From positions 231,235 through 295,234 of the forward strand of contig CAJINV010000028.1 in assembly GCA_905178155.1 (NCBI GenBank): a stretch of DNA of 64,000 bases. The letters are read 5' to 3'. Source of the DNA: Amoebophrya sp. A120 (Eukaryota; Protista; Dinoflagellata). This document shows positions 23,626-57,920 of the stretch, in pieces. A model generated the notes under the pieces. The model saw nothing but the letters and a program-made list of their open reading frames with translations, did not search any database and was not told the origin of the DNA. Positions within the stretch are counted from its first letter, which is position 1. Each line of letters opens with the position of its first letter. The translations under genes were made by a program, and so were the position numbers.

Positions 23626-26600
23626 TCAGCGTCTCCGACTGTCACGGCGGCGAGACCGGGTTGCATTTCTGCTCCTGTTTCTACGACCACCGCTCCGACG
23701 ACCCCCACGACTGGCGCCCCGACCGCGGCCACGACTGTCATCTCGACGCTTGCTCATGGATCTCGACCGCCGGCGACGACTGTCTCTACGCCGGGTACCA
23801 TTTCCTCGGCGATCGCGGTCATAGCTCTGCTTCTCCTGGATCAGGTCCTCTACGAGCCTCTGCGCGCCCAGCCGACCTGGAAGGGTGTTGGTGCCGTGTT
23901 CGTGTATTGCTATTGCAATAAGTTTATGCATTTACAATTTTTTCCGAATGGCTTTTTTACAATGATAGGGAGTTAGCAGAATGACTTATATGAAAGAATG
24001 GAAGTAGTAGGCTCAGCGAACTAGATGAGTATGAGTTACAGTTACATGGTGAAAACAGTTCTAATTCATTTTCATAACTCGCGAAATATTACCAGTAGGA
24101 TCCGGATTCCTGTGTCCTTCTTCCTGCCCAAACACGAGCAGGCGCTCCACATCGGTCTTCGGGTATCGTATCAAAATCAACTGCAAGAAAAATCCTGTCG
24201 GGGTCTGAGAGAATGAAAACCAAGAAATCGTGCCCTTTCAACGAGTTAAGAACTCATACTGAGTGTCGTATCTGCCGAGCAGATGAGAACCGCACAGTTT
24301 TTATTCAAGCAAAACTACGATTTCCCTTCATGCTAGTCCAGCAACTTCTACCGTTCACAAACCCTGAAACATAAGAGAAAGAGGCTCAGTTTTTTTATTT
24401 TTTCGTCTACATGATTCTACTCAATGCAGCAACAAAGCACGTTTATCTTTATTCCCGACCCCGATACTAGAACAAGCTATTTATCAAATGCATATCCCGA
24501 GCAAGAAAGCAGAAAGTCCGTGTCTGCTCCTCCACTTTCCGTAGCTCTATCCTGAGTAAAAAGGTACCCACACCAGAGATGTAATGCAGATTTGCAAAGA
24601 CAGGAAGACTTGTAATGCGCAAACCCATGACAGCCATTTCCAATCGTGTTTTTGAATTTGTGATGCTGTGAACAGGATGAGCAGATGAATCTGTGATGCG
24701 GCTGCACTTGCTAACCTGCACTACACTTCATAGCGCAACTTGTCATGCGTGACTCACAAAACTCCTAGGTTTGTGTTGCAAAATCCCCATCCTGACTCTG
24801 GTGTGGGTACGTTCTTACTCAGGATAAGCTCATTTCCGTGTTTACCAGTGACCCAACCAATGCACTCCGCCGGGATGGCAACTTCCAGGCAGTCCTTCCG
24901 ATTGCGCGCGTCGACGTCCATTTTGCCATGCCGCTGTTCTAGGAGCCACTTCACGTAGTCGTGGCAGTTCCGCTATCCTGTTGACAAAAGAATCGCTCTC
25001 TACTAACTGCAGTATTAAAGCATCACAACTTCTCTAAGTATATTTGTATTTCCATTTCCTCATCTTTCAGTTACAGCATGGCAATTCCGCATGACAAAAC
25101 TTCCGTTTCTGATGCTGAAAAACCTGTTCAAAATAAAACATGTGATTCACTGCAGCTAGCAAGCCATCAGTTCGGTTTCGCAGTGGATACACGTCGCTTT
25201 TCCAAGGTTCCCGCCATGAGAATATGCTCGCCGATGATTTGCACGTGACACCCCGACGCGAGCGCGAGCTTCACACGCGTACTTCCGCCTTGTCCCAAAC
25301 AGTAGGCAATGGCTTCGTCCTTCAGGTGCATAATGTCCGTCGAAAACCTGACAATTCAGATAGATTGAATCTTCGGATCAGATTGCGTAGTTGTGACGAA
25401 AAATTGCAATTTCTTGGTCTATGATCACTGCCGCACGCCCAACGTTGTACGTTAAGTCTGATCATGTATTACTGTACGATAATGAGATATGTTGCAGCGC
25501 ACATTTTATTTATCACTATTGATAGATTGTGCGTTGTCACCACGAATCAACAAAAAAAATATTTGTGGATTCGGCGCACACAACGTGGCTGATCTTGTAG
25601 ATAGTCTGCTCTGCGCCATGCTCCACTGTGCATGGCAGAATATATAAAATGAAAAGCAACTATACCCAGGGTTTTTCCATTCGTCCCTGTTTTCTTCCAG
25701 GTCCTTTGAGAAGTAGCCCTTCTCCTTTGACTCGACCGAAGATTTCACTTTCAGCTCGGCCCCCTTGCTATGAAAGCCCTAGGTTGGATATTCTCAAAGT
25801 CAAAATAATTTGCAATCCAAAAAATCGACTCCTGTTGAAGCGCCATTTGTAGTCGGCGCATGACAAATTTCCCGGGCACTTAAAGCATGTTTGTCATGCA
25901 GGTGAAGGCAAAGGGGTGCCCTTCTCTCATGCTAAGCAGCACTCCAATTTTTCACCCCCAGCAGGACAATAGTCGGCCTCCATTGCGGCCTCTGCAATAC
26001 AGTCTTTTTTGCGTCGCATTCCATGCATCAGAAATCATTTCAACTTTGAGGATTTCCATTCCGAGGCTTTCATACTTGCGGGCCTGCTCGTCACCGAAGA
26101 TCGCCAGCCACTCGAACGGCGTTTTCTCACTCTTGATATATGAGAATGCACAACTCCCTCTCCCCCTCATTTGTATAGCATGAACGGCAATACAAGCACC
26201 AGCAAGTATGCCGGTTTTGCATGACAGATTTGCACTGGATTGTAGTGCTATTTGGGCTACCAGAACTTGTCATGCATAATAGTGACAGAAGGGAAAGCGT
26301 GGATATGGATTGGGTATTTTGCATGAGAAATGAGAACGAGGGGGAGTTGTGCACTGTCATATGATACCGGTGAAGAACATGAGGCAACCGAAGTCCATTT
26401 CGATCGTAGAAAGGGCTGCGCGACGGGAACCGGTGATGTAGCCCACGCACTCCTGGAAGAAATTTTTATATGGCTGTTTTTCGATTTATGCTGATGTTAA
26501 TCGATTTTTGAGAACTACGTCGAGGAGCAAAACGAAAACTCAACGTGGAAAAATTATACAACCGTTTCACTTCATTTTGCATTCTCGATGAGCATCAACA

Positions 26601-29509
26601 TGCTGTAAACAAAACTGTGTAGGTGATTCTTGCACAGCAAAACGAAAGAGAATTTTATCTTTTTTTTCGCATAGTATTTCGACTTACCCGGGGAATTTTG
26701 AGCATTGTGCAGTCATCTCGGGACTCCGCGTCTGGGACGTCAACAGGTCCGTCTAGCCTATCCAGCAAAAACCATGAGTCGGGGTCAGCGACACTGCAAG
26801 CATTCAGTTGCTGCATTCGAAGTGGAGATCTACATTCAGTCGCTACAGCGGCTTCGTCCTCGGGTCGTCAAGATCAGGAACATATACTTGACAAAATTAA
26901 GTTTAAGAAGGCGCTATTTATTACTTGCGTGCGTTGTGTACGTATTGAGAAAAATTGAATTCATGCGAAGAAAATTTTTCATGCGACAATTACATGCGGT
27001 TTCCGTTTGATATGAAAATACATGGAAAGCGAAAAGCAAAACAAAATTGATCTTCGTTGTTCTGAGGTCCATAGTATACTTGGTTGATAGTCTCTGACCT
27101 CAACGGCGTGTCTGCGGCGGATAAAGCTGCGCAAACAGCCACTTCATGTACTGTCTGAGGGTACGCCGCCGCGCGCGATCACCTAATCGAAATTTTCATT
27201 CGCATTTGCTACAGTTCAAATTTACTCCATGAGAATTATGTCCATCAGCATGCACTCAATATCAATGGACGCGTTGTAAAAGAGATGAACTGACCGATCT
27301 TTCTTACATAGCCTAACTGACCGATCTTTCTTGCGTCGCCTGCAACCGTACAACTGCAAGTGAAGTGGAGCAATATTATAGGTAAATGTACTTACTACAA
27401 TCTACTACAACGTGGAAAACTTTTATACCAGTAAAGACCGCTACGTTTCCAATGTACTGCAACAGGCAGCCGCTGGCTTTTTCCAGCTTCCTCCTGGTGG
27501 CGCCGTTCTTTCCGAGCGCAAAGGAGAGCTGCGAGTCGTCTGAGAAGGGCATGACACCGCTCCGCCAATTCTCTCCGTCTTCGTCGCGGGCGAGAATTTC
27601 CGCTCGGTGCTTTTCGAAGTACCCCGCGCACTTCGACTCGATAGCGGACAGCACCTTCAGCTCTGCGCCGCGACGGTTGCGCCGATCCGCACCGAAAATG
27701 GCCAGTCGCTCCATCTCCTTGGTCATGCGACCGTCCTTATGGACAGAGAAAAGTTTGTCAAAGTCACTAACACTATCTTGCAGGTTTTGCATGAGAAATT
27801 TTTGGCATCACAACTTTTTTCTTGTATTCAGCAGAAGCACAAGGTAAATCGTGTATGAAATGCGACTGTGATGCATGTTGATGCATGACGGATGCCATTT
27901 GTGTTGCAAGATTGCCGATGAGTGATCGTGACGAACTTTTTTTCTTTGATAGTCCTTCTTGCCGTTGTAATCAGCGAAGAACATCAAGACCGATATGCAA
28001 GAAAAGAACTGTGTAAGTGTAAATTTGTGTTGCAGAAGATGCAACAGAGTTACACCTGTCATGCCAGACAGCCATGAAGTCCTCTTTTCGTGTGTATTTC
28101 CCCTGACAAACCATGCATGGCAGGTTTTCTCTGTCATGTAGAACAAATTTGTGATGCTGTTCCTCAAAGAAAGTTACACTTACACACTTTTTTTCCTGGA
28201 TAACCGACCACTCGTCTTCGATGGTACGCAGAAAGTTTCCGCCGCGCCCGGTGACAAACCCGCAGGCGTCGTTCGGAACGTCCAGCAGGGTCAGGTCTCC
28301 GTCATCGTGCGACTCGCGCTCCACGAGGACCGGCCCGACCCGCTGCGCCGTCAGAAACTTGGAGTACTTCATCGCACGGTCCACCTGCGTATCCTTAGTA
28401 AAAACGTCCCCACCCCATGGTCAAGATGGGGATCTCGCAACACAAATCGCGAAGTTTTGGGAGTCAAGCATGACAAGTTCCTCTCTGTAGTGTGGTGCAG
28501 TTTAGCAAGTACAGCCGCAACACAAATCCATCTAGTCATTCTGTTTACAGCATTACAAAGTGCAAAATACGATGGGAAATGCCTCTAATGGGGATGCGCA
28601 TTACAAATCCTCCTATAACTGCAAATCTGCATGACAAGTATGGGGTGGGGACGTTTTTACCCAGCGTACTGTGCTTGGGTTCCTTTCGCCTGCAGAACGA
28701 GGTCGTCCATGCTGAGTGATGCCACCCCCGAGGCATTGGCGATCTTCACTTTCGTCTTGCCGTTCCGCCCCAGCACGAACGCCGCGTCGTTGTTGCTCAA
28801 TTTCAGAGTACATGACACGGTTTCCTCGGCCTTTTCTTCTCCTTTTCCGTCGCCGGACTTTGTCTTTTTCGGTTTGTATCCAAGGGAAAAATGTTGTTTG
28901 ATGTCACAGGAGGGGACTTCTTGGAAATGCGAAGGTTCTGCTTTTTGAGATGGTTGAGTTCTACGTGAATGGGGATCAGGTTTACGGGTGAAGATGCATC
29001 TCCATGCGGGAAGTATCACCAATAGTTTTGCGAAGTTACATTCAAATACATCATCGTTTGGACCAGCAGTAGACCATGAAGCCATAAATTAAGTACTTGT
29101 AAATAAAGGTGCGAGAAATCCTTACACTGCTATTCCAAATTCATCTGGTTCTTCGAGCCGAAGCTTTAATATTTCGAGTTTCAGTTTCGATTTCAACCGA
29201 ATTCCAAAAGAGTTGCAACGAACAGCAAGATCAACAAGGTCGTGGTCCCAATTTCTGCAACTGCTTTTTCATGTATTCCTTTGCGCCCCTGACGAAACAT
29301 CAAACCTACTTTTTTCTGGAGGGTAGCGACCTCGAACGACGGTCGGAACCGGCGCTGCGCTCTCGGATGGGAGAGTTGGATTTTCCGCGCGAGGAGGACG
29401 ACCTCCGGTTGCGCCGCACCGAACGCTGCCGTTTGGATTTACGCTCTTTCGCTTTCCGAGAGGAGTCCCCGGACCGGGAGCGGGAGGTCGAAGAATCGCG
29501 ACCCGACAT
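23626..29509 (-). CDS. Multi-KH-domain RNA-binding protein (6 KH GxxG loops) with N- and C-terminal RS-rich regions; 10 introners plus GT-AG introns
   Basis: KH loops VLGRNGK, VTGRGGN, ALGKNGA, ITGSRRA, CLGQGGS, VTGKHGN; RS ends MSGRDSSTSRSRS..RSRSP and ..RSRRRDSRRR*; all introner junctions in frame. Confidence 0.9.
24169..24494. mobile_element. Highly degenerate introner
   Basis: TATCAAAATCAA...TTATCAAATGCATA; flanks 3/5 match; +5 removal gives LARDPKTDVERLLVFG. Confidence 0.6.
24548..24826. mobile_element. Introner family B (young)
   Basis: TATCCTGAGTAAAAAGGTACCCACACCAGAG...CTCTGGTGTGGGTACGTTCTTACTCAGGATA; TSD agctc/agctc; inverted near-copy of 41781-42059. Confidence 0.95.
24974..25189. 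mobile_element. Degenerate introner
   Basis: TATCCTGTTG...CGCAGTGGATA; internal GCATCACAA/GCATGACAAA; +5 removal preserves KH helix spacing. Confidence 0.65.
25769..26074. mobile_element. Introner family H
   Basis: TATGAAAGCC..GG.TGGA.AT.CTCAAAGT TIR at both ends; TSD cttgc/cttgc. Confidence 0.9.
26139..26361. mobile_element. Introner family G
   Basis: TATGAGAATGCACAACTCCC...GGGAGTTGTGCACTGTCATA; TSD tgata/tgata. Confidence 0.9.
26759..27123. mobile_element. Highly degenerate introner
   Basis: TATCCAGC...GCGGATA; flanks tagcc/aagct; +5 removal gives KWLFAQLDGPVDVPD. Confidence 0.6.
27738..27951. mobile_element. Introner family E
   Basis: TATGGACAGAGAAAAGTTTGTCA...TGACGAACTTTTTTTCTTTGATA; TSD gtcct/gtcct. 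Confidence 0.9.
27994..28202. mobile_element. Introner family E
   Basis: TATGCAAGAAAAG..TGTGTAAGTGT...ACACTTACACA..TTTTCCTGGATA; TSD accga/accga. Confidence 0.9.
28390..28668. mobile_element. Introner family B
   Basis: B TIRs; TSD ctgcg/ctgtg; removal gives GTQAQVDRAMKY. Confidence 0.9.
28877..29325. mobile_element. Degenerate E-like introner
   Basis: TATCCAAGGGAAAAATGTTGTTTGATG vs reverse complement of the other end TACCCTCCAGAAAAAAGTAGGTTTGATG; +5 removal gives RSRSPKKTKS. Confidence 0.65.
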
Positions 29510-32280: not shown

Positions 32281-35186
32281 CTATTGTACTGACCTCAAAA
32301 AAGGATGATCCGGATCTTGAGGAACGACCAAAACCGCGAAACTGATCCAGTAGCAAGATCCGTTTGAATTTTCACCTTTCGCAGACTCGATGCTAAAGAG
32401 CTCTTCGTCGGGATAAATGCAAGCGGCCTCGTCTTCTACACATTGGCGCTGGCATGGAAGTGGGAACGGCAGAAGGTCCTGCTCAAGGAAAAATGTATTT
32501 TGAGGTACTTCTACTTGTCGGTATGTACCACGATGCGATGAAGACATTTTCTGCAGAGCTGCGTCGCGGAGTATTGGTCTCCAAATCGCGGACAGCATTC
32601 ACTTAAAAGCCAGCTGAAATACAAAATCCATCGGTGAGAAAAAAATGATACTCACAATTCGATGCTTTTTCGCATCAATCGCACTACTTGTAGTTTGCTC
32701 TAGTTATAAGTGTCACAGACATCATCTCTTCGGTTGGTATTGTCGCAAGTTTTGACGGGCATACTCTTTGCGAATCTCCCGTTCCTGCAAGTCCTTTTTA
32801 TGCATTGTAAATGCCCCTGCGACGTCTGGAAGAATGCAAACTTACGAGCCTCAATTAGGACCATAGGGACTACGATCTAGCACACAAACGAGCAGAAAAT
32901 CTTTATCTTGCGCAATTTTTGTTCCAATCTACAACAATACACCGAGTTTGTGATGCGGAATCATAACTTTGAAAACCATTGATCTTGCTGCTGTGAGTGT
33001 GGCAGACGTCTTTCTCTTTTTACAATTATAGACAGAGGTCCATCTGTCACTGTCTCTGTCTGTCATGGACACGGTGAACTACAGACGATAGATTTACGTT
33101 TACCTTGGTCTGGTCCTTCTAAATACACAATTTGCACGACGCCTTCTGTATTCTCCCAGACGAGCCAGACTTTTTTGCAGTTGACACCTCGCGCGACGTT
33201 GCTCTTTATACGTTGTTTTGCATCTGCGTTGCGTTTTGACCACCTTCAGATGGCCCACCTTGGACGGAGACGATTCAGGCTTGACGGCGTACTACATCAT
33301 GCGCAAAAATGCACGAGCCAATGCCAGATTAGAGTTCCTGCTGGTGACTTTGTTTTTGAATCAGTCCCTGTGCTGGCGATTGTGAGATGCTATTGACCAC
33401 TACGCTAGACATGGAAGGACGAATACTGTGCACATTTTGCAATCATGCGCATGCTATAGAATTCTACAAAATTAGAAAAATAATTTCTGTGCGATCGAAA
33501 CGAGGAACTACTTGCAGCTGCCTAATCAGAAAAATTGCGTCATATTACTAGTGCCAGCAGCAATACATACAAAGTGCTGATAAGATGATGAGATCATGCG
33601 GCTCGCAGAGTCGTCGAAATGGAAGACGCGCACATTTTCAGTATGGTAATTGTCAGCCGTAGCGGTTGCCTGTCTGAAGGTTTCATGCCGTGTAGTCGCT
33701 GTTCCACTTGGTCAACATGTGACGAGGATACGGAGGCCGACGCGAAAAAAACAGCGTTCTTGCCCATCTGCTCAACAGACGAAGCCTTCTTGTTCGGCTT
33801 TTCGTTCCCCCATGACAGGCTTTCCGCAATGGCGTCCGTGACGAAGTGGTATTGTACGCACCTGCGGAATAGCAATGGAGGCACGGCACCGAGGTCTGGC
33901 GAAAGGTCGCCAATTTTTCCGCGAATCACTTTACGCACGGTATAGAAAGAGCAATGTCTGACCACCAAAACCAAAATCTGACGTGCTGGCAGGACATGAT
34001 ACAGCTGTATTACATGTTCATCTGAAAGAACAAAACTGGAGAGTCACATAACAAAAGGTTTTTTGCGTCCATTGCCACAGGCTACTTTCAGTACTCATGA
34101 AAACGCATGCCCAACCACTTGGCGGATGTTTCTGTTTCTCGGCAGAAGTGCAGTATGATCTCTTTCGATAGGCCGCTTCCAGTAGATCGTTGGTGCTTGT
34201 TATCCTGCTCGGAAACCTTTTGAGAATTTGCAGCGACAGTGGCAGTGCGTTCTTCCCATCGACGCCGTGTTCGTCCACCGAGTCGCGTTTTTTGTACTCC
34301 TGCGCAGCCAGCTTTAGCAGCGGTGTCAGAACCGAAGTCTGGAAGGTTTTCCGCTCTGCCACCTGGGACGTCGTGGTTTTCGGCCCCTGGATCTGAACTT
34401 GAAAATGTGCCTCGAGGAAAATGATCCACAGCGGTATCACGGGTAACTGCAGCAGAGCTTCTTTTACGGCGGGGTCGTCGATTCGCCAGCGGCTGGCGGG
34501 AACCTCTGCAAATGCGTTCCGCAGCAGCAGGTTGGCGTAAAAGTCGTTCGATCGCACCACCTCCTGCGGAAGTCGATTCAACGTTTTGCGAGCCTCCTTG
34601 TAGTCCTCGCTGATCTGCTCGAGGTCCTCCTTTGTGTGGTGCTGTCCGGCCCGGTTTTGGGGATAATATCAGGTGGAAATGTACCTAGGTCTACTGAAAA
34701 ACAAAAAACGTGTATAGCAAAGCAGGCAAGCAAGTGTGATCTTTGTTGAGTCCTTGGATTTATAAATGTTGATGCTCTTGCTCGCACTTCTCACGACACA
34801 TTACTTGCTTCGATCTACTTTTCTTGCAGATGTTCTACTTGTCTAGAAGCACGAGGGGACAATTAGACGCCGGATGTTTAAGTACGACAGAGGCCGGGAC
34901 CCAGCGAAACAAAGATCTCAGACGGAGGACACCTATCTCTACAGATCTAGCAACTCAAGACCCAGCCACATATTGTGGGGCGTAGCTGCCAGTGGATCGC
35001 GACATTTGGGATTCGCCGCGTTTCGCGAATACTTTCGGCGCCGGAATCATCATCTGCGTCAATTCTCCAGCACAGCAGCTTCGCGACGAACTGCAACACA
35101 AGCGCGACAAACTCCGTCTTTGAAGAAATAAGTGCGGGGTAGCGGGCCGAGGGTGCGGCGCAGCGGGCAGAAGTCAAAAGCGCCAT
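32281..35186 (-). CDS. Hypothetical multi-exon gene (structure unresolved)
   Basis: GC-richer minus-strand ORFs 34018-34581, 33594-33974 and 32281-32598 separated by AT-rich intron-like DNA; no family recognised. Confidence 0.45.
32799..33186. mobile_element. Degenerate introner family A
   Basis: TATGCATTGTAAATG..GTCTGGAAGAAT...ATTCTCCCAGAC..CCAGACTTTTTTGCAGTTGACA; flanks diverged; frame not tested. Confidence 0.6.
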
Positions 35187-36395: not shown

Positions 36396-37118
36396 CTACT
36401 TGCCCGGGACGTCCCTCCGCCACTTGGTGGTCGGCCAATCAGCCTCAAAGCTCTCGTATCCGTCCGCCTTCATCTTCTCCCTGTGGTCGGCGCGCGCTTT
36501 CTCTGCGCCCTCCCCGCGAAGATAGAAGCTGCGCGCTGGTTTTTTTTTCCCTTTGACCGGCGCGGAATATTTGCGGCATTCGCACCACCTGAAGCAAAGA
36601 ACGTGCGCAGTGGGCGGCTTGGCCAGCGGCGTGAGCATCTGTAGCCGAGAGCCCCAAGGTGAGTGCCGGAGCAACGTTAAAAAAAAAGCAGTGCGCCGCC
36701 GGCTCACCCGCAGCTCCTTGGGTGTGTTCCCCTGGTCATGCGACTCGAGCGGCCGGAAAAATTTCGTGCGCTGGTCTGCTTTCTCTCCAGAGCGGCCTGG
36801 CGGTGCGACGGCCGGGGCGGTACGAGAGAGCGGCGATCCCCAAAATTCTTCCAAGATCATGTTCAAGGCGGCGGCGGGGCCGTTGCCGGTGCTCCATACC
36901 TGGCGGTAGGTCTTCGCCGCGACTTCCTGCAACTGCTTCACTCGGTCCGCCCCCTCCTCCTCCACGACGAATACCTCCGGGCGATTGACCAGGAGCCGCA
37001 GGCCGAAAGACACACCGAACGAGGCGTCGTCTCCGAAGTACTCGGCAAGCTTCCTCGGTATCCAGTGCAAACGCGTCTGGGCATGGAATGATGCAGGGCT
37101 CCTAAGTGCTATGGGCAC
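36396..37118 (-). CDS. Hypothetical 240-aa ORF (separate gene or terminal exon of the upstream gene)
   Basis: Long GC-rich ORF; basic C-terminus KPARSFYLRGEGAEKARADHREKMK weakly AP2-like. Confidence 0.55.
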   Translation of the reverse strand: MPIALRSPASFHAQTRLHWIPRKLAEYFGDDASFGVSFGLRLLVNRPEVFVVEEEGADRVKQLQEVAAKTYRQVWSTGNGPAAALNMILEEFWGSPLSRTAPAVAPPGRSGEKADQRTKFFRPLESHDQGNTPKELRVSRRRTAFFLTLLRHSPWGSRLQMLTPLAKPPTAHVLCFRWCECRKYSAPVKGKKKPARSFYLRGEGAEKARADHREKMKADGYESFEADWPTTKWRRDVPGK

Positions 37119-37297
37119 TCGTCTACAGAAACTTCAGCTGAAAAGAAAATGCAAAATCTTTCACGTGCGTTGCAGCTCAAGGCCGCTCGCAGCTTGTCAC
37201 GCAACGAATAGAAAATCATGTGTAGCAACTACGCGGCCAAGTAAAACTTGCGGGGGCGCCGCCCCGTTTTTGCGTTTGACTTTGCCCGCCATGGCCC

Positions 37298-40200
37298 TCA
37301 TCTAATAGCTGGCCAACATTCCCCGGCCCCGGCCCGGACGCGTTTGCATTTCGTAGGCGGCGACGGCAGTGGTGCGCCATTCGGAAAATACTCCAGCGCC
37401 CAGCTCCGTTCAAAATCTTCAAGCTCCCGCGCTTCGACGTCTGCGCGCTTTTGCTCGACGGTCTGCTTCTTCGAGCGCGGAACTACTGAGCGGAAGTAGG
37501 CATATCCACTGCAAACGTGTCTGGGTCTAGAAACTTGTCATGACCAATACAGAGTACTCAGCACACGGCGCCCGTCCTGATTAAAGCCAAGCATGACAAA
37601 ATCTGAAGGCGCTGCCTGATGCCGCTGCGTAGTGCGCATGGCATTCGCGGGCCCTGTGCTTTGCATGACAGCAACGGGCTCGGTTTTCCTTTTGTTGGTC
37701 AGCATGCAGCATAGAGCAATTTACACAGGAAAGAAGCAGGAAACTGCCAGCGACCCGAGGCCCGGGCACATTTGCAATGCGTAAGACTCTCAGCCAAGCA
37801 ATCCGCTCCGCGGTGGTTGCTTCTTTGCTGGCCTTGAGAAGTGCTTGCGCACTGCGGTGATCAAGGTCAGTGTCGAAGCGGCAACCCCGCCGCTCCTTCA
37901 CAGCAGGGCACCAAAACTTTTCCCGCTTTCCGGTCGCCGGGTCGTCCAATTCGCACCGCGCGCCCTTCTCGGGGCCATAGTCCCGATCGTACAGGCAAAC
38001 GTAGAGCCTTTCAAACTCTCGGCATCGCTTGTTGCTCGAGTGGTCTCGGAAAGCCTTCTGCACGGCAGTGGCCTCATCACGGCACTGGTGGCATAGCAGC
38101 AGCTCCTCCGCCGGCAACCAGTGGAAGCATGGGGAAAGACTCGCCGCAGCCGGCACACGGTCCGCCTCAAGCACGCCGGCCTCACCGCCACCCGCCCAAT
38201 CCCGGGCCGCCTCCCTTCCCACCACGTCCGGCATGCGCTCCGTCGCGCCTTCTACGAAGCAGAGGCAACAACGCCCCACATGGTCCGCGCGCTCCCAATG
38301 GTTTGCCCATCGCTTTCCCCTCTTCATTGACGAATCTCGACGCTTGGAGGCAGAAGACGGGCGAGCCAGCGCGCTGCTGGCCCGTGCCTGAGAGGGGTCC
38401 GCCACAATTGTTGCACGCGGGCCACCAGCAACGACAACGCTTCGGCTCCGGTTGCAATTCGTGGAGTTCGCACTTGCGGCCGGTAGTCTCATGGTCTGTA
38501 CATCCGGCGCCGGGACCTTCTGTAGCTCCTCCTGTTTTTGGTCTGCTGCGGCTGATGTTCTACGTCCCGACCTGGTACCCGCAACTGCAACAGATGAGCT
38601 CCCGCTCTTGGTCTTGCCCACGGCAACTTAGATATGGACTGCAAATGTGTCTCAGTCTGGAAAGATTCAAGCTTCTCATACTTGGCTGACAGGGAAGAGA
38701 AACCTGTCATGCCAACTGCACTACAGCCTCTTCTCTTCGTCTACAATCATGCAATTTGTCACGCGGGTTTTTTTTACAGAAGATTTAGCAGGCGATACCT
38801 TTGTCATGCGTGCCTCCGTCTGTTGTAAATGTGATAGACACAGATCGTCATCCACCGATCAGCATGATAAGTCCACTCCAGACCCAGACACCAATTTCCA
38901 GTTGATAGACCGCAACGCCAGCACTGGCTTTAGAAGAAGACTGCTTTTTATTCACTGCACCTAGGTCCTTCGAAAACTTGGAAGAAGAAGATCCAGCTGC
39001 AGCTCCTTCTCCAGAACCAACTGACAATTGCTGCAACTCCTTCTCCAGAAAGTCCTCCAAGTCCGACTGCAGTTGCGATTTTCTCGCCGCTTTAGAATTC
39101 AACTTAGAGGTCAAAGCCTCCATGCGGTTGTCGTCTTTCTTTTTCACCGTTCCCGGTCTCGCGTTGCTGCAGGAGCTCGTGATAATACCCCCCTGACTCA
39201 TTCTACTGGGTGCTCGTTTCATCGCTGGGGTTTTGGAAGAGCTTGACTTCGAGTGTAATATCTCCGGTTGTTGCTCTACTTCTTCTTGCAGCAGAAGTTC
39301 ATGCTCATTATTCGCCTGCTTTTTACTACTCTTCTTCGCCGATTGCTTCCTCACCATTCCGCTCGCTCCATCCGCGGCAGAAGGGATACTAGAGCCTCTT
39401 GGTTCTGCTACCGAACCGGTCCGCTTTTTCGCCACGGTGGAGCTAGCGTCAGACTTTGCAGTTTTTGTTCCGGCAGCAGATGCCTCTGCCTCAAGGACTC
39501 TCTTGACGGAGGATTTCGATTTCGATTTCGCTTGCTTCATGTCAGCATCCTGTTTCTGGCGTTTCTGTTCGGCGATAGACATCTGCTTCTCACTGCGCTC
39601 TTGTTCCGCCACGGCTTTGCTCGCGGCTTTCGAGTTGCTGTAGGTCATTTTTCGTTTCATCACTGTGCTTGAAGAGGTCGCTTTTAGTTTACCAGCGGGC
39701 TGCGCGTCTTCTGTGTCGACGTCGAGCGTGTAGTAGTTTTCGTTGGCCTTGACAGCTGACGTCTTGTTCGCGGCAAAAGTACTAGCCTCGTCCTCGACTT
39801 TTGCCTTGTTGGAGGCTGTCGTCCTCCGCTTTTTTGCGACCGGGTTAGCAAGAGCATCGGAGTTTGCTTTTTCCTGCTTCGGATTGCAGCTCTTTTCGGT
39901 TCTAACAGACGCGTCCAGGATGATCTTCTTCGTGTTGGTAGATTTCGGTTTGGATTTCGCGCTGGATTTTACGTCAGATGAATCCTGCTTCTGTTCTTGC
40001 GCGACAGACATCACCCGCCCACTGCGAGCTTGTTCAAGAACTCCAGCCTTGTTCGTATCCTGAGTAAAAACGTACCCACCCCATAGTTGTAATGCAAATC
40101 TGCATGCTGAAAATGTTTCTCATGCGGAGCCCCATGAGAAGCATTTCATAGTCGTGTTTTGCAATTTGTCATGCTCCAATCAGCATGGTATGCTAGATCT

Positions 40201-43200
40201 GTGATGCTCCTGAGCTAGCTCAAACAGCACTACAATACGAGTCCAAATTTGTCATGCAAAACAGCCAAAACTTGTGGATTTGTGTAGCCGATTCCCCATC
40301 TTGACTATGGTGTGGGTACGTTTTTACTCAGGATAGTTCGCTTTCGCACTGCTGGTCGTTCTCCGTTTCGTCACTTCGCTATCACCTGCAAAAATGTCTG
40401 GGTCTGGAAGAATGAAAGTTTCAGTTTGTCATGCTTGTCTGGCATGACTCGAGAATCTGTGCTGCATAGGCACGACAAGGCCCTCTTGGTTGTCATGCCA
40501 AAACGCAGTTTGCCATGCGGAATATATAAGACATGGCAGCCAACACATTTGTCATGCGTAGCTGCGTACTGCAATGCGTTTTTCATTCACTTTTAGCATT
40601 ACAAGTTTCCAGACCCAGACATTTTTGCATTTGATATTCGCCCGAGGAAGGCAAATCTTCTTTCACCGTGCTCTTGCGCTTCAAGTTCAACTTGGAAGAA
40701 GCTTCCAGCGCGGCCGGCTTCGCGCCACTAACCTCGTACTTGTCCTTGGCGATTCCCTTGCTGGAGGTGCCTGACTCCTTCCCAGTGGCCTGGTAGTATT
40801 TGAAGAATTTGGACATGGAACATATTTTTTTAGTAGAACAAGTAAAAATATAACCCTGATGTCTGTCGTGTGGTAAAAGCTACAACTACATAACGCCGCG
40901 GGCGGAAGTTCAGCTTTCGCTTCAGAAAGAAAAGCAAAAGAATCAATCTGGTATAATTCCCATGAGCTGCTCGTGCTCGTAACAAAATTGTTTTATACTT
41001 TGGCTTCCTTTCCTTTCTTGCCCTTCGTAACCGTTGGTGTTGGTTTTTCATTTTTCATTTGATTCTCCTCCAAATCCAGCTCCAGCAGGGTTTTTTTCGC
41101 CGCTTTTTTCCCGATCGCGTCTTCAGAGGAGGTGGTCTTGGTGTCGTTTCTCTTCTTCCCCAGGGCCGCGGAGGTACAACTAGAGCTCTTAGTTCTACTA
41201 ATACCGCCGCCAGTACTCTTTCTAGAAGCGGCAGCGGTTTGTTTCACTGCCACCTCTGTTTTCGACGATTGCTTTGTCGCTTTTCCGCCCGCAATACCTC
41301 CTGCAAGAGGCGTGCTAGAGCCTCTTGCGCCAGACTTTGCTTCCCGTTCCGGTTTGGCCTCTTCGGCAGCAAGAAACGCCTCGAGGACTTTTTCCTTGTT
41401 GGTAGTAGATTTCGATTTTTTGGATCGCGATTGCATCAACATGTCAGCGCCCTTTTTTAGTTCCATCTGGTCTCCCCCGATAGACCTCTGCTCAAGGTGA
41501 TCGTGCTATCCTGAGAAAAAACGTACCCACACCAGAGTCAGGATGGGGAATCTGCTAGACAAATCAGCCAGCTTTGGTTGTTTGGCATGACAAGTTTGTC
41601 CGCGTAGTGTAGTGCTGTTTGAGCTAGTTTAGCAGCATTACAGATCTAGTATCTCGTGCTGATTGGAGCATGACAACTATGGTGTGGGTACGTTTTTACT
41701 CAGGATACGTGCTCCAGCTTGCTCATCTTCGAGTTGTTGGCGGTCATGCTTCGTGGTCGTTTTATCACGTTGCCCGAGGATATCCTGAGTAAAAACGTAC
41801 CCACACCAGAGTCAGGATGAGGATTTTGCAACACAAACCTAGGAGTTTTGTGAGTCACGCATGACAAGCTGCACTACGCAGTGTAGTGCAGGTTAGCAAG
41901 TGCAGCCGCATCACAGATTCGTCTGCTCATCCTGTTCACAGCATCACAAATTCCAAAACACGATGGGAAATGGCTCTCATGGGGATGCGCATTACAAGTC
42001 TTCCTATCTTTGCAAATCTGCATTACAACTCTGGGGTGGGGACGTTTTTACTCAGGATAGAGGAGACCGGTGATTCTTCATTCCCCGTGGTCGTGGTCGT
42101 GACCATATTAAGAGGAAAAATCCCCCCTCCCCACATCGCAAAGGTATGCTTCCGAAAATTTGTGTTGCTGATTTGAGACCACAAATCGCCTCTGTCTTGC
42201 AAGGAGGCAACTCCACAAGCTCCGCAGCATTGCGCAGGCGGTTTGTGATGCTGACGGGCCTCCAGTACGGACGTTCCTCATGCTAGACGCCTAGGCCAAA
42301 ACCTCTCTACTTAGGCTTAGTATGGGCCTGCATTTCTCTCCAGCAAGACAGATCTGATTTGTGTACGCAAATCCTGCATCAGAAACTTCGTTTCGATATG
42401 GGGAGGGGAGATTTTTCTTTTTGATAGACCATCACGGTGCCCGAGGTGGTCATTCTCCTTGGTCGCTTTTGTTCACCAACGAGCACGGTGGCTTGTTCAA
42501 ACGGGTGCTTTTCGTTGGCCTCGAAAGTGGAAACTGACCTCTTCGAATTCTTCGTTCCGCTGGCCGCGGCACTGGTGGACTATCAAATGTAAAAATGTCT
42601 GGGTCTGGAAGAGTCCATGTTTGTCATGCGTGTCTGGCACGACTCGCAAATCTGTCATGCACGTTACCCAAGAGCGCCACTTTTCCGTCATGCAGAAACG
42701 CAGTTTGTCATGCAGAATACAATAGGCAACACCTAGAAGCTCAGAAACTTCTCATGCTGAGCCAGCACTTGTGGCTTCCTCATGATATGCCACCCAGCAT
42801 CACAAGTTTCCAGACCCAGACATTTTTACATTTGGTATTCTCCGTGGTCGTTTTATCACGTTGCCTGAGGAGCCCGGGTTTTGTTCACCTCCACCGAGCA
42901 CGGTGGCTTGTTCAAGCGGGTGCTTTTCGTTGGCCTCGAAAGTGGAAACTGACTTCTTCGAATTCTTCATTCCGCTGGCCGCGGCACTGGTGGACTATCA
43001 AATGGAAAAATGTCTGGGTCTGGAAGATGTGTCCATGTTTGTCATGCGTGTCTGGCACGACTCGCAAATCTGTCATGCACGTTCTTACCCAAGAGCGCCA
43101 CTTTTCCGTCATGCAGAAACGCAGTTTGTCATGCAGGATACAATAGGCAACACCTAGAAGCTCAGAAGCTTCTCATGCTGAGCCAGCACTTGTGGCATCC

Positions 43201-46200
43201 TCATGATATGCCACGACCCAGCATCACAAGTTTCCAGACCCAGACATTTTTACATTTGGTATTCTCCGTGGCCGTTTTATCACGTTGCCCGAGGAGCCCG
43301 AGTTTTGTTCACCTCCAACAACTACGGTGGCTTCAAGCGGGTGCTTTTCGTTGGCCTCGAAAGTGGAAACTGACCTCTTCGAATTCTTCTTTCCGCTGGC
43401 CGCGGCGCTGGTGGACGAAGACTGTATCACCGGCTCTATTCTAGCAACAGACGCCTCCGCCTCGCGGCCCTTTTTGCTGGTGGATTTCGATTTTGATTTC
43501 GCTCGCCTCAAGTCAGTATCCTGCTGCTGTTCTTCATCCGCGAAGATGGGGAAGAGCTGCTCATTGCCGTTCTGTTCCAGCACCACGGCCGTGCTCGCTT
43601 TCGAGCTGTATCAACTGGAAAATGTCTGGGTCTGGAAGAATCCAACTTGTTATGCTGATTTTGGATTCTAAAAAAATCTGTATTGCATGAGCAGCAAAGA
43701 GAGTCCAAGTTTTGCTACACGGAAAGAGCATTTGTCATGCGGCATAGGCATCAGGAAGCCCTCACAAAATCTGTGATGCTAGGGCATGCATCACAGACAT
43801 CAGGAGTCATGCAAAATGTGCATGACAAACCTGGCAATCTTCCAGACCCAGACATTTTTACTTTTGATAAGCTGTTGTAGTTGTTCATTTTCCGTTTCAT
43901 CGCTTTGCCGGAGGAGGCGAGCACGTCCTCTGCATCGAGCGCGTTGTAGTACTTTTCGTTGGCGGCGTCAACAGCGGAGACTGACGCCTTCGATTCCCTC
44001 TTTTTTCCACTGGCCGCGCCGGCGCCGATGGACTTCCTGGCCTGCTTGGATTTGGAAGCTGATGCGCCTTTGCTTCCATTGGTATCGTTCCCCAATCCCA
44101 CCGTGCTCTTGCGCTTGGAAAAAACTTCGAGGCCGGCCGCCTCCGCGGGAACAGCGTCCTCCTCGTGCGTGAGTTTTGCCTTGCTGGCGGTGGCTGACTT
44201 GTTGTCGGTGGCCTGGTAGTATAATTTTGACATTAATCATTGGAACATCAAGTAAAAACTGCGCAGTGTGTACTGTGGCAAAAGCCGAGGAAAGTTGAAG
44301 CTCATCTTTCGGTTTACATTTACAAAAAGAAATAAGAGCGTCATATTACGTGAAGATCGTGCTGCTCGTAACGAATTTGCACTTACCTTCTTTCCCTTCT
44401 CTACTTTGCCGCTCGGATTTGAGGGTTTTTGATTCTCCAAACCCTCCTGGCGCTGTGTTTTTTTTCTGAATTGCAAAAATGTCTGGGTCTGGAAGATTCT
44501 CAGATTTGTCATGCATGTTCTGCATGGCCCAGGATGTCTGTGATGCGCGACCGCGCATCACAGGTTTTGACCTGGCTTCCTGATGCCTACTCCGCATGAC
44601 AAACGCCCTCCCCGCGTAGCACAAACTAGACTCCTCTTGCTGGTCATCCAATACAGATTTTTGTTTTTCTAGAGTCCAAAGTTAGCATCACAAGTTCCAA
44701 TCTCGCAGACCCAGACATTTTTACAGTTGATATTTTTCTGTTCGCTTTTATCTTCCTCCTGTGTCACTTTTAATATTGCGGAACTTTTTCTGCCTTGTTT
44801 CGAGGACTTGGCTGCTGCACCCGTTCCGCTGGCCGCGGCACTGGTGCACGAAGACTGTATCACTGGCTTGGAAGTTGTGTTTTTGTTTCCATTGTTGTCG
44901 CTCACTCCAGTCGTGTTTCTGCGCTTGGGCTCGGGAGAAACTTCGGTGTCGGCAAGCTCCGCGGCAAATAGAGCCTCCTGCCCGTGTTCCGCTTTTGCCT
45001 TACTGGAGCTGGCGGACTCCTTGCTGGTGGCGGCGGTGGACTAGTAGTATTTTAATTCAGACGTCATTTGATGGAACAAGGAAAAACTACGATATGCGTA
45101 TAAATGTAGTGCTGGCAGAACGGATTTTTACATCGCGCTGGGTTCTTACATTCTCATTCAGCCTTTGCTTTACAAAAAGAATAGAAAATAACGCGGGGTC
45201 TTTTGCTGGTACTGACGAGTAATAAATAAATAAATACTTTCTTATCTTGCTTCCGATTGCCCTTCGGGTCTGACGATTTTTGACCCTCCAAATGGTCCCC
45301 CTGGTCCTCGTGCAGCTGCGCATTATTTCTGTGCTTGCTTCTACCTCGTGCGGAAGGTTCAGCCTGCACGGCCGTGGTTGTTGAATTTCTTTGCTTTCTG
45401 CTAGAAGAAGAAGCTGCATTGTTGGCGGAGGTATTGACTTTGCAATCTTCCTCCGGTGTCGCTTTTGCACAACTTTTTCTGCCTTGTCTCGAGGACTTGG
45501 CTGCTGCACTTTTGCAGCATTTCTTTATCTCGTTCCTCTTCGGCATCCTTCTTGCTTGAAACTTTTATTACGTCAGTTAGGAAATAGCAATACGTGTGTC
45601 GCTTGTAGGTCGTGATTGCTGTATCAGTCGAAATTGTAAACGATTCTGCACCTAGCAGTTGCAATGATTGTGATTCTTACAAAAAGTTAACATAATTAAT
45701 AGCTGTCTTTCACCGTGATACTTTTTTTCTTCCTAATTTTGATTGTGTCATACTAGGAAAAGGTTGAGTTGATGTAATGTCGTTTGTCTAGCTGACAAAA
45801 AAAACGCAAAAATGTGGATCGTGTTCGCCGGTTCCCGCCGACAAGATGCTTCTCCAAAAAGCTCCAATGTTGACATCATGCCCCACGTGAGGGATCGATT
45901 TGTGTGAGACACTTCTTCATCAAAAACAACTCGCCTGGTTCGTACCCAGAAATTGTCTGCGGTGCGGCACAACAAGAAAGCGGAACAAAGCGCAACATCC
46001 TTCACGATCTTTCTATCAGCGGAACAAAAAACAACATCCTTTCTGAAAATGAGAAACTGATGTGATCTTCTATCTTCACCGCCTTCAGCTCAAAAACAAA
46101 CCAAAGAGCAGAGCAATCACAAAGAAATGATCATCGTGATTCACGAACTCGTGCTGACAAACGTGCGTGCATAAGGATAGGAACTTCGAACATCTGACAG

Positions 46201-52701: not shown

Positions 52702-55644
52702 TCAGTCAGAAAGACCGGCTGCGCGACGGATGACCCGCTGAGCCTTTTTCGCCAACTCCTTCTGGTGCTTCGTGGGTTTCTTGGCGTACTGTTTGATCAC
52801 GAGCTTCTGCTGGCGGTTCGGAATCGACACCGCAATTTTCTTGCCGGACGCGGACATGAGAGGCCACAGGCCAAAGAGTTCTTCCAACGGAGGCGCAGTG
52901 AGGCTCTTGTCGAGGGGCTGAAGATTTGGTCCGCCCTGGGTTATCAAATGTAAAAATGTCTGGGTCTGGAAGAGGAGAAGTTTGTCATGCACATTTTCCA
53001 TGATCCATGATGTCTGTGATGTATGCCATAGCATTACAGATCTTTTGAGCGCCTATCGATGCGCATCCTGCATGACAAATGCCCTGTCCGCGTAGCCAAA
53101 TTTGACTCCTCTTGCTGCTCATGCAATACAGATTTTTTTAGCATCCAAATGCAGCATCACAAGTTTGGCTCTTCCAGACCCAGAAATATTTGCATTTGAT
53201 ATGGGTGGCCGCCACATCAGTGGAACGCAGGTAGTGGTGCGCCTCCACGGTCTGGTATCTCTTGGTCACCTTTCAAACGAAAAAATGTCTGGGTCTGGAA
53301 GAATGCATGTTTGTCATGCTCGTCTGGCGTGACTCTTAAATCTGTCATGCACGTTACCCAAGAGCTCCATTTTTCTGTGATGCAGAAACGCAGTTTGTCA
53401 TGCAGAATAGGCAACACCTAGAAGCTCAGAAACTTGTCATGCTGAGTCAGCACTTGTGGCCCCATCATGAGACGCCACCCAGCATCACAAGTTTCATCCA
53501 GACCCAGACATTCTTACATTTGATATCACCTTGCCCAACTTTTTGTTCGTCCTGATCTGGTCCACAATGTCCGCCATATGAAGTGTAAAAATGTCTGGGT
53601 CTGGAAGAATGCAACTTGTGATGCGCATTTCAGAACACACAAAAATCTCTCATGCATAGGTAGCAAAAGCTGCGCACTTTCTGTCACCAAAATGGGGGAT
53701 TTGTCATGCGGGTTCGGCATTGCGGAAGCTTCTCGAAACCTGTGATGCTAGAGCTTCCATGACAGACCTTCTGTGTCATGCAGAAACAGCATGACTCTTC
53801 CAGACCCAGACATTTTTACAGTTGATACGCCAAGCGCGGGCGCGAATGCTGCGGCTGGCCGACACACTCGGAAATCCAGTCTCGCCAGAACTTGGGCATC
53901 CGTATCAAGTGTAAAAATGTCTGGGTCTGGAAACTTGTGATGCTGGGTGGCGTCTCATGATGAGGCCACAAATGCTGGCTCAGCATGACAAGTTCCTCAG
54001 CTTCTAGGTGTTGCCTAATCTGCATGACAAACTGCGTTTCTGCATCACAGAAAAGTGGAGCTCTTGGGTAACGTGCATGAGAGATTTGAGGCTCATGGCA
54101 GACAAGCATGACAAAGATGCACTCTTCCAGACCCAGTCATTTTTGCACTTGATAATCCGCTGGAGGTGCGGAAACCCGGTCCCCACGGCTTTGTCAATCG
54201 ACGTGCGGAAGGCAGTCAAGTGGTGCTGCGTCACGTGTTGGGTGTCAATGTTCTCGACGTAGCGGTCCCACTTGTAGCCCAGGGCGCCTTCCCGCTTACA
54301 GTCGACGGCGTGCCAAATCTGCGCGAGAATCATGCCGACCGCAAACACGTCGTTCTTGATGGTGTCGAAGGTCGGACCTCCGGGAGAGAGAAGCGTCTCC
54401 CACGTTTTATCACAAGAAAAAAGTGTTACAGGTACACACTTGTTGGAGTTTCTGCATCACAAACTTTCGCTGTGTGGCAGGGAAACCTTGTAATGCGAAG
54501 ATCATGAGGGAAAACAGGAAGGAAACGAGGCTCCCAAGCATTTCCTGCATGAGAAAGGTTATCTGTGTTGCCGGTCTTGCAACAAAATGTTTAACTGTAA
54601 GACTTTTTTCTTGCGATACATTTCCGGGCTTCCGTAGTACAACGTGCCGGCGGCACACTTCGAAGCTTTCGTGTTTTGCTTGCCCCAAGTTGCTATCCCT
54701 TGCAAATGTGTCTGCGTCTGGAATGTTGCCGGGTTTGTCATGCATGTTTTGCATGGCCGAGGATGTCTGTAATGCACGACCTAGCATCACAGATCTTTAG
54801 AGGGCTTCCTGATGCCGACTCCGCATGACAAATGCCCTCCCCGCGTAGCACAAACTAGACTCCTCTTGCTGGTCATGCAATACAGACTTTTTTAGAGTCC
54901 AAAGTCAGCATCACAAGTTCCAACCCTCCAGACCCAGACATTTTTGCATTTGATAGTTGCGCATCCCCAGTCGACCAGTTTTAAATGCCTGGATCTGCTC
55001 TCGACCAGGATGTTCTCCGGTTTCAAGTCCCCGTGCGAAATACCGTGCTGCTTATGCAACAAGGCCACACTCTCCACTAATTCACAGCTCCACTGCATCG
55101 CCATGTCCACCGGCATGTACTCCTCGTCGACTTCGAGCCACTTCTCGAGAGTCTTTCCCTCTACCGTATCAATTCTCAACCCAACTGTGACTTTCGCGAG
55201 CTGAGACGCCGCAGTCTTGATCGCATTGTTCTCTTCGTCCTCTTCGGGCGGCACCGGTAGCACAGGCTGCTCGTCCGCTTTTTTGGAAGAGGATGCCGCA
55301 CCGGACATCAGTGCGGAGTCATCCGTAGAGATGTTGCGCGCCTCCATGTCGTCGTGGTCTTCAGTGTCGGCCTTTGGCACTGGGGCAGCAGCGGATTTCT
55401 TCATCACTTTCTTTAGCGGCGGAGGGACCTCCTCCGCGGCCGCACCTTCGATCAAGGCAGAGGACAAGGGGGCAATCAAGTCGATCACGTCCGGCTGCGC
55501 GCTCAGGTACTCCAAAACCACCCGCTCTACGTACGCGTGTGCGCGGTGTGGCAGGCTCGTGAGCAGGTCTGCCGCGCGGTAGAACTTCCATCCGCCCTTT
55601 CTCTCCGTGGTGAAAGTCGCGAATGCGCCCTTTTTCGCTGACAT
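52702..55644 (-). CDS. Ser/Thr protein kinase (divergent) with 6 introners
   Basis: KKGAFATF..WKFY..VERVVLEYL..HGDLKPENILV..LKLVDWGCATW..AGTLYYGSPEMW..NDVFAVGMILAQI..WISECVGQPQHSRP; continuous only after removing six elements +5 nt each. Confidence 0.92.
52942..53201. mobile_element. Introner family A
   Basis: A TIRs; TSD tgggt/tgggt. Confidence 0.95.
53271..53525. mobile_element. Introner family A
   Basis: A TIRs; TSD tcacc/tcacc. Confidence 0.95.
53577..53827. mobile_element. Introner family A
   Basis: A TIRs; TSD cgcca/cgcca. Confidence 0.95.
53903..54154. mobile_element. Introner family A (inverted near-copy of 53271-53525)
   Basis: A TIRs; TSD atccg/atccg. Confidence 0.95.
54408..54618. 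mobile_element. Introner family E
   Basis: TATCACAAGAAAAAAGT...ACTTTTTTCTTGCGATA; TSD cgttt/cattt. Confidence 0.9.
54694..54955. mobile_element. Introner family A
   Basis: A TIRs; TSD gttgc/gttgc; interrupts the kinase activation segment. Confidence 0.95.
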
Positions 55645-56429: not shown

Positions 56430-57920
56430 AATCCGCATGTTCTGGGCGGCACAAAAAATCGCTCCTCAGAGCAAAACCTTCTCCTGATCTGATTATTGCT
56501 GCCGCAAGATCCCCAGGAAGATCCCCTGGAGACATTGCGATAGCAATAATTAGGTGCGCGATGCACCGCATTTTCTGGGCCGCCCAAAAAAGCGACTCTG
56601 CGAGCAAAACCTTCTCCCGGTCTAATTTTTGCTGCCGCAAGGTCCCCAGAGGAGCTTGCGGCAGCAATAATTAGGTGCGGGAAGCGCCGATGTTCTGGGC
56701 GGCCCAAAAGATCGGCCCTGCGAGCAAAACCTTCTCCCGGTCTAATTTTTGCTGCCGCAAGGTCCCCAGAGGAGCTTGCGGCAGCAATAATTAGGTGCGG
56801 GAAGCGCCGATGTTCTGGGCGGCCCAAAAGATCGGCCCTGCGAGCAAAACCTTCTCCCGGTCTAATTTTTGCTGCCGCAAGGTCCCCAGAGGAGCTTGCG
56901 GCAGCAATAATTAGGTGCGGGAAGCGCCGATGTTCTGGGCGGCCCAAAAGATCGGCCCTGCGAGCAAAACCTTCTCCCGGTCTAATTTTTGCTGCCGCAA
57001 GGTCCCCAGAGGAGCTTGCGGCAGCAATAATTAGGTGCGGGAAGCGCCGCATGTTCTGGGCGGCCCAAAAGATCGGCCCTGCGAGCAAAACCTTCTCCCG
57101 GTCTAATTTTTGCTGCCGCAAGGTCCCCAGAGGAGCTTGCGGCAGCAATAATTAGGTGCGGGAAGCGCCGATGTTCTGGGCGGCCCAAAAGATCGGCCCT
57201 GCGAGCAAAACCTTCTCCCGGTCTAATTTTTGCTGCCGCAAGGTCCCCAGAGGAGCTTGCGGCAGCAATAATTAGGTGCGGGAAGCGCCGCATGTTCTGG
57301 GCGGCCCAAAAGATCGGCCCTGCGAGCAAAACCTTCTCCCGGTCTAATTTTTGCTGCCGCAAGGTCCCCAGAGGAGCTTGCGGCAGCAATAATTAGGTGC
57401 GGGAAGCGCCGATGTTCTGGGCGGCCCAAAAGATCGGTCCTGCGAGCAAAACCAAAAAGGTCTAATTTTTGCTGCCGCAAGGTCCCCAGAGGAGCTTGCG
57501 GCAGCAATAATCAGGTGCGGGAAGCGCCGCATGTTCTGGACGACCCAAAAGATCGGCCCTGCGAGCAAAACCTTCAACGACCTGCTAAATTTCTGCTATC
57601 ACGAGGCCTTGCGATAGCAATAATTAGCTGGGGGATGTGCCGCATTTTCTGGGCGTTTTCTCGGGAGCTGAAAAAATTGGCTTGTTTGCGAGCAAAACCT
57701 CCGCAGACTTGACTATATTTCTGCTACCACAAGGTACCCAGGGAGGTCCCCTTGGGCACTTGCGGAAGCAATAAATATTTAGGCGCGGGATGCGCCCCTC
57801 TTTCTTGGTGGGCCAAAGAATCGGCTTTGCGAGAAAAGCCTTAACCTGATTGAATTTTTGCGTATCGCAAGGTCCCCGGGCGGGTCCTCTTGGGTCCTTG
57901 CAACAGCCATAATTAGGTGG
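56430..57920. repeat. 120/121-bp tandem satellite with an internal hairpin; ~8 near-identical units plus degenerate flanking units
   Basis: cgagcaaaacc recurs at 56601, 56721, 56841, 56961, 57082, 57202, 57323, 57443, 57562; stem ttgctgccgcaag...cttgcggcagcaa in each unit. Confidence 0.95.

Follow-up and report, generated by a model that had tools for sequence, protein, structure and literature searches.

Introners of Amoebophrya sp. A120 carry an 11-bp motif that is repeated 2-9 times per introner, and we put a probability of about 0.65 on its being the helix-phased binding site of the protein complex that copies these elements. The motif is a feature of nearly all of these known introners and has a strict geometry; it is best read as a mobilisation code, which as such is of a known kind but takes an unusual shared form. 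All counts come from the analysed stretch of 64,000 nucleotides, hereafter the window, and from 584 kb of JACKZZ01 contigs. The latter are a held-out set of 148 loci, fetched by the end pattern of family F1 and merged, in which F1 is over-represented. They are taken to come from the same kind of organism because they hold copies up to 98% identical to those in the window.

The window carries at least 56 inserts of the form TAT...ATA. Long minus-strand frames open once the inserts are excised with one repeat copy each, for example a frame of 1022 amino acids over five inserts. Among 89 elements picked by their ends alone, the target duplication is exactly 5 bp in 79 and 6 bp in none, with at most a slight lean towards G+C. 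According to an end matrix, F1-F5 and F9 have inverted repeats of TAT, seven variable bases and AAA; F6-F8 have the TAT start and lack the AAA run. These ends match published A120 introners, and window protein P0001 is 100% identical over the query to a database protein labelled Amoebophrya sp. A120. The inserts are therefore A120 introners, and the elements themselves are known, not new. The texts of PMC7789003 and PMC12130899 describe the same TAT, ~7 nt and AAA inverted repeats, lengths of 110-330 bp, many families, non-canonical splice sites and insertion into coding exons, as well as short direct repeats of 3-5 nt at the borders, into which the 5-bp duplication falls.

One F1 copy, in a minus-strand reading frame, has the following parts:

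43609..43869, no strand: introner of family F1, a 261-bp TAT...ATA non-autonomous element with terminal inverted repeats
43604..43608, plus strand: left copy of the 5-bp target-site duplication AGCTG, flush with the element end
43870..43874, plus strand: right copy of the 5-bp target-site duplication AGCTG, flush with the element end
43609..43639, plus strand: left terminal inverted repeat, its outer TAT-N-AAAA common and its inner part family-specific
43838..43869, minus strand: right terminal inverted repeat
43645..43655, minus strand: motif site GCATAACAAGT, pointing to the left end, with its G at 47 bp
43676..43686, minus strand: motif site GCAATACAGAT, 31 bp from the site at 43645..43655
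43730..43740, minus strand: motif site GCATGACAAAT
43748..43758, plus strand: weaker motif site GCATCAGGAAG
43769..43779, minus strand: motif site GCATCACAGAT, forming a divergent pair with the site at 43788
43788..43798, plus strand: motif site GCATCACAGAC
43820..43830, plus strand: motif site GCATGACAAAC, 32 bp from the site at 43788, with its G 50 bp from the right end

This copy thus has seven sites at the matrix threshold. An earlier note on this DNA had quoted five places in it, all of which are present (43731 TTTGTCATGC, 43770 TCTGTGATGC, 43788 GCATCACAGA, 43806 GTCATGC and 43820 GCATGACAAA); the one at 43806 is a partial site with a matrix score under 5. A frame of 542 amino acids (40996-44236, minus strand) opens after excision of six inserts including this one, each with one target duplication.

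The motif proposed in the earlier note, GCAT(G/C/T)ACA(A/G)A, is real and was given too short. GCATBACARA occurs 93 times in the window against 1.52 +/- 1.28 times in shuffles, and a matrix trained on 47 window elements yields an 11-bp motif, GCAT(G/C/T)ACARRT, with variants GCAA- and -GAGA- and the same profile in each family. Its information is spread over the 11 bp and is strongest at GC and ACA. Inside elements (61 intervals, 16.4 kb) lie 92 of the 93 matches, a count that is partly circular since motif clusters had prompted the inclusion of 14 of the 61 intervals. In an initial list of 47 elements, which were chosen by their ends and target duplication, there are 230 matrix sites in 12.1 kb versus 93 in the 51.9 kb outside. 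Intact elements have ~21 sites per kb. The proposed rarity of the motif outside inserts is borne out by the window with element-like DNA masked, where it occurs at background rate (1.02 sites per kb, 1.02 expected). In the unmasked DNA of the 584-kb loci an excess stays (1.25 versus 0.89 per kb), and on inspection the motif clusters there are mostly decayed elements.

A finder that uses only ends and target duplication returned 373 elements from the 584 kb and none from 200 kb of simulated DNA. Two or more sites occur in 372 of the 373, which covers all 14 multi-copy clusters and 12 of 13 singletons, and the elements together hold 2047 sites, compared with 146-160 after shuffling. In the window, 54 of 56 elements have at least two sites and all 56 have at least one. 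At least nine end classes with unrelated inner inverted repeats carry the one motif. The proposal that the motif is present across families therefore holds, whereas its presence in both orientations in every family does not: 49 of the 373 elements have sites in a single orientation, including the 280-bp F2 family and a 110-bp family.

Divergence was determined for 15 subfamilies of at least seven copies (313 of the 373 elements). The motif core differs from consensus at 6.7% of positions, the rest of the interior at 21.4% and the family-specific inner inverted repeat at 5.7%; for F1, the search pattern biases the values of the inner repeat downwards. Relative to the interior, the rate of change on internal tree branches is 0.24 for the motif and 0.18 for the inner repeat; on terminal branches the ratios are 0.43 and 0.53. 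Singleton changes amount to 2.2% in the motif, 2.8% in the inner repeat and 5.5% in the interior. The motif behaves like the inner repeat. Its slow divergence, together with its presence in the held-out elements, supports the suggestion of a cis-code kept in common by families whose interiors and inner inverted repeats differ. The earlier note had also asked about neutral decay in old copies, and here the result is mixed. The terminal-branch ratio and the singletons point to residual conservation, which on terminal branches fits unsampled active lineages, given sparse sampling, as well as selection after insertion; the number of sites falls weakly with inner-repeat decay, from 6.3 to 4.0 (rho -0.16, p 0.02, 198 elements).

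The sites are arranged in a strict geometry. A same-direction pair 31-33 bp apart is found in 14 of 15 subfamily consensuses (permutation mean 2.8, maximum 10 of 15), in eight of nine end classes and in 307 of 365 elements (those under 450 bp; eight long or site-less elements were left out). Outward-pointing sites cluster at 40-42, 48-52, 71-73 and 79-85 bp from the end, and 283 of the 365 elements have one at 39-42 or 47-53 bp; in family F3 none of 43 has an outward site at 40/50 bp. Same-direction, divergent and outward-to-end distances each follow a period near 10.5 bp that was reached in 0 of 2000 permutations, compared with 80 of 2000 for convergent pairs and 10 of 2000 for inward-to-end distances. 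The phasing survives reduction to one consensus per end class with the 31-33-bp pairs removed (0 of 300 permutations in each of 24 sets, with the reference point and period picked after earlier distance results had been seen), and the reduced-set periodicity peaks at 10.25-10.5 bp and is negative at 11. Subfamily lengths also lie 10 bp apart, with peaks at 252 and 262 for F1 and at 311 and 321 for F5.

Phasing on one face of B-DNA, in either orientation, points to a protein that acts on double-stranded DNA. The earlier note had offered three readings of the motif, namely subterminal transposase sites, an RNA-binding-protein or hairpin signal for removal of the insert, and targets of ApT methylation. 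Among these the subterminal, DNA-binding reading fits best because of the B-DNA phasing, the fixed distances from the ends and the fact that it needs neither a particular strand nor facing pairs. The terminal repeat was also considered as a degenerate copy of the motif, which holds for just two of 30 consensus ends.

The same geometry could be a functionless residue if all families went back to a single ancestor in which a unit of ~32 or 80 bp had been duplicated internally. F2 and F5 do look like repeats of an 80-84-bp two-site unit, and the interiors of F1 and F2 fall in one similarity cluster. However, the spacers have drifted apart, the motif core being three times more conserved than they are within subfamilies, and the phasing holds for opposite-orientation pairs and without the 31-33-bp pairs; we regard this origin as very unlikely.

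A period of 10.4 bp is also nucleosomal, and the motif might be a chromatin or modification mark, by way of ApT adenine methylation, rotational setting of nucleosomes or a host silencing factor. An ApT step stands at positions 3-4 in 1607 of the 2047 sites, and inhibitory subterminal sites exist in piggyBat, according to the text of PMC11707139. The other 440 sites lack ApT at that step, and ApT methylation does not explain the 11-bp specificity; information extends over the whole motif and peaks at GC and ACA. Outside elements the motif is no more frequent than background, active copies would lose a site that did nothing but silence them, and the searchable part of PMC12695648 does not mention Amoebophrya. 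Such a mark is accordingly improbable, well below the DNA-binding reading.

Evidence for removal from RNA comes from contigs of runs X4, X6, X7 and X8, which are presumably RNA-type and represent one sample. Among the joints listed (15 of 28), these contigs skip four GT-AG introns and eleven non-canonical inserts, so that introners are removed at non-GT/AG joints in contigs that also skip the four canonical introns. Matches in the raw RNA runs X14 and X15 were limited to partial ones at element ends, and exons were not covered. The following inserts are informative:

24548..24826, no strand: F2 introner with a one-directional array in sense on the transcript; joint 24542/24827 in X4, X6, X7 and X8, removed with one target duplication
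28390..28668, no strand: F2 introner with the array antisense on the transcript; joint 28384/28669, removed, same contig depth
28873..29326, minus strand: degenerate non-canonical intron with TA...TA ends and no motif site; removed
33291..33649, minus strand: degenerate non-canonical intron with no site at threshold; removed, joint unambiguous
33937..34171, minus strand: degenerate non-canonical intron with no site; removed, joint unambiguous
24970..25190, minus strand: intron with degenerate ends, a target duplication and five motif sites, a counter-example; removed
52942..54955, minus strand: six introners (five F1 in both orientations, one F4) in a protein-kinase gene; the arithmetic of an X4 contig fits removal of all six, 5 nt each
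24969/25191, 26754/27125, 28384/28669, 28871/29326, 33290/33650, 33936/34172 and 34661/34985: informative joints that fit N|TA...TA NNNN

The own splicing of the copy at 43609 is absent among the joints listed (15 of 28). Another X4 contig skips 50398-50713. The two F2 copies at 24548 and 28390 have opposite arrays and are both removed exactly with 5 nt, which means that both orientations of a one-directional array are cut from one contig. The seven informative non-canonical joints follow one rule, in which a single base precedes TA(T/C) at the start of the intron and four bases follow the closing TA at its end. Every one of these joints therefore has U at position +2, in agreement with Table S4 of PMC7789003, where nine of nine predominant non-canonical A120 sites begin with N-T. 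This suggests that the terminal TAT supplies positions +2 to +4 of the 5' splice site. PMC7789003, in its searchable text, leaves the splice borders variable, whereas here the cut fits N|TA...TA NNNN and the duplication is exactly 5 bp. End pairing in old introns exceeds the internal null in two of six.

Six removed introns have degenerate ends (five from the joint table and one from contig pieces). Five of them carry 2, 0, 0, 0 and 1 sites and the sixth carries 5; the five together hold 3 sites in ~1.7 kb, near background. These five motif-poor introns prove that this mode of splicing works without the motif. They show no family-level homology, so that a loss of the motif from them is our assumption. 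All four canonical introns are likewise removed with 0-2 sites. A 302-nt F1 remnant at 37059 has one site, and its removal is required if the 1022-amino-acid frame is real, an argument from the frame and not from RNA. Removal from RNA thus appears to depend on the ends (N|TA...TA NNNN) rather than on the motif.

These observations bear on the earlier proposal of an RNA signal for removal of the insert, either a site for an RNA-binding protein or a stem between facing pairs. The predicted fold of the copy at 43609 does contain such stems (z -7.5), and in minimum-energy folds of 60 elements, computed for both strands, 298 of 660 sites are paired with another site. One-directional arrays, whose sites cannot pair with each other, fold equally well through their ends, as in an F2 copy (z -6.4). 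An RNA splicing enhancer would act on one transcript strand and be needed for removal; the one-directional F2 arrays are removed both ways, and removal takes place with 0-2 sites in five of the six degenerate non-canonical introns. The spacing moreover follows the B-DNA period, not 11. The DNA side of the earlier proposal is favoured by the phasing and the fixed end distances, and its RNA side is very improbable given the strand-independent removal and the motif-poor introns.

A mark on DNA could still serve splicing. A host protein may bind the phased motif and thereby tag introners for co-transcriptional splicing in place of U1, whether or not it also acts in mobility. Phasing and strand independence fit this equally well, the decayed and removed intron at 24970-25190 keeps its 5 sites, and the residual conservation on terminal branches (0.43) and in singletons (2.2% versus 5.5%) would be in line with it. 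U1 was not detected in these genomes, according to the text of PMC7789003. Against it, 0-2 sites suffice for the removal of five of the six degenerate non-canonical introns and of all four canonical ones, and one site would have to suffice for the F1 remnant at 37059 if the 1022-amino-acid frame is real. On balance we consider a DNA splicing mark unlikely. We also entertain, as a speculation with still somewhat lower odds, that one host DNA-binding protein reads the array in every A120 family, licenses copying by an integrase-type enzyme and flags fresh insertions on DNA for U1-independent splicing until the ends suffice. If true, a shared licence code would let tens of thousands of transposons enter exons harmlessly.

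In the preferred reading, the motif as a binding site of the copying complex, several copies of one DNA-binding protein would occupy one face of the 110-330-bp element, where they would contribute to its bending and to the pairing of its ends. The cut would be determined by the outer TAT-N7-AAA together with the inner repeat specific to each family, and a DDE enzyme of the integrase type would make the 5-bp duplication. Copies that keep the array would go on multiplying, which could maintain it across families. Since the inner repeats are family-specific and the motif is common, the binder may belong to the transposase(s), as a second and conserved DNA-binding domain, or to the host, as an architectural cofactor.

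No such binding protein or autonomous element was found in the 584 kb of loci and the window, and an integrase pattern scan of the same DNA gave no catalytic-motif match. Elements can carry cargo: two F1 copies, L022:632-1465 (834 bp) and L069:11024-11995 (972 bp), are flanked by perfect 5-bp duplications, and their cargo has no motif sites. The L069 copy interrupts what by eye we take to be the gene of the largest subunit of RNA polymerase II. Seven open reading frames of the 834-bp element and those over 18157-18762 of the window had no Pfam match, and end-pattern scans of the viral_contigs and genome_contigs collections gave 0 matches. Candidates for autonomous elements, sought as long pairs of terminal inverted repeats, proved to be nested, cargo-bearing or due to chance, and one is an inverted gene duplication in L056/L057. 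This near-perfect 2.2-kb inverted duplication (L057 3268-5441 and 14914-17086) covers the start of a 1362-amino-acid frame. The text of PMC7789003 reports no transposase in A120 and argues against general mobilisation by transposases.

The window has several further features. TAT...ATA families without AAA at positions 11-13 (4536-4769, 11953-12291 and 26139-26361; 10294-10548, 18157-18762 and 25769-26074) fall outside the published A120 end consensus and still carry the motif; the copies at 25769 and 26139 are removed in the RNA-type contigs. Two tandemly duplicated F1 copies (42581-42837 and 42996-43261) have interiors that are 95.5% identical and flanks that are not a target duplication. 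They are likely hybrids that arose by recombination between elements, and the frame is still kept after their excision with 5 nt. Old F1 copies with recognisable homology and 1-4 sites left lie at 12695-13022, 32799-33186, 37059-37355, 37503-37783 and 38633-38907. The window also encodes a PC4/Sub1-like gene with two PC4 domains (30502-31434, minus strand) and carries a tandem array with a period of ~120 bp and a 53-nt near-palindromic unit (56622-57396).

Arrays of subterminal binding sites are present at the ends of Tn7 and Mu. In piggyBac/piggyBat, Tol2, Tag1 and Ac, as described in the text of PMC11707139, short repeated motifs lie in order inside the ends and apart from the terminal repeat, and their help in synapsis is an established principle. 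The A120 motif resembles them as a short sequence at fixed positions inside the ends that is conserved among mobile copies. It differs in that one motif is common to at least nine classes and fills the whole short element, and no protein that binds it was found in the 584 kb and the window.

Integrase-like transposons offer a second comparison. IS3EU/GingerRoot share TA..TA termini with the introners and, like Ginger, a short fixed target duplication without sequence preference (PMC10045372 and PMC6839031, in the text available); their duplication is 6 bp, in contrast to the 5 bp here (6 bp in 0 of 89). Ginger1/Ginger2 have a 4- or 5-bp duplication (text of PMC10045372), consistent with the 5 bp seen here, but they end in TG..CA and not in TAT..ATA. 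Autonomous members of IS3EU/GingerRoot have an integrase-like DDE transposase, and no transposase was found here in the 584 kb and the window. One A120 family is filed as Ginger with a 5-bp duplication and TA/TA termini in the supplement of PMC12130899, among 22 of its 58 A120 rows. Non-canonical introns derived from MITEs in Fritillaria are also elements with terminal inverted repeats and target duplications that are removed at non-GT/AG sites, but they belong to a different lineage and favour AG-AC/AG-AT (text of PMC11282704), in contrast to the N-T starts here. An assignment to Fritillaria-type AG/AC introns was dropped on the TAT-N7-AAA ends and the match of P0001 to A120.

The searchable text of the A120 introner papers (PMC7789003 and PMC12130899) names no internal motif, spacing or phasing. 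The motif core has no match in the supplement text of PMC7789003; the text of PMC12130899 contains "binding site" 0 times and "motif" once, and its supplement has no motif match. None of the papers searched reports the internal motif in its searchable text, and figures, theses and subscription papers could hold it.

For A120 with its tens of thousands of introners, a near-universal helix-phased site speaks for a common DNA-binding partner and provides a bait to catch it. One element would hold two codes, of which that in the interior probably serves copying and that at the ends splicing. This division is relevant to the conversion of transposons into introns where the spliceosome reportedly has no U1.
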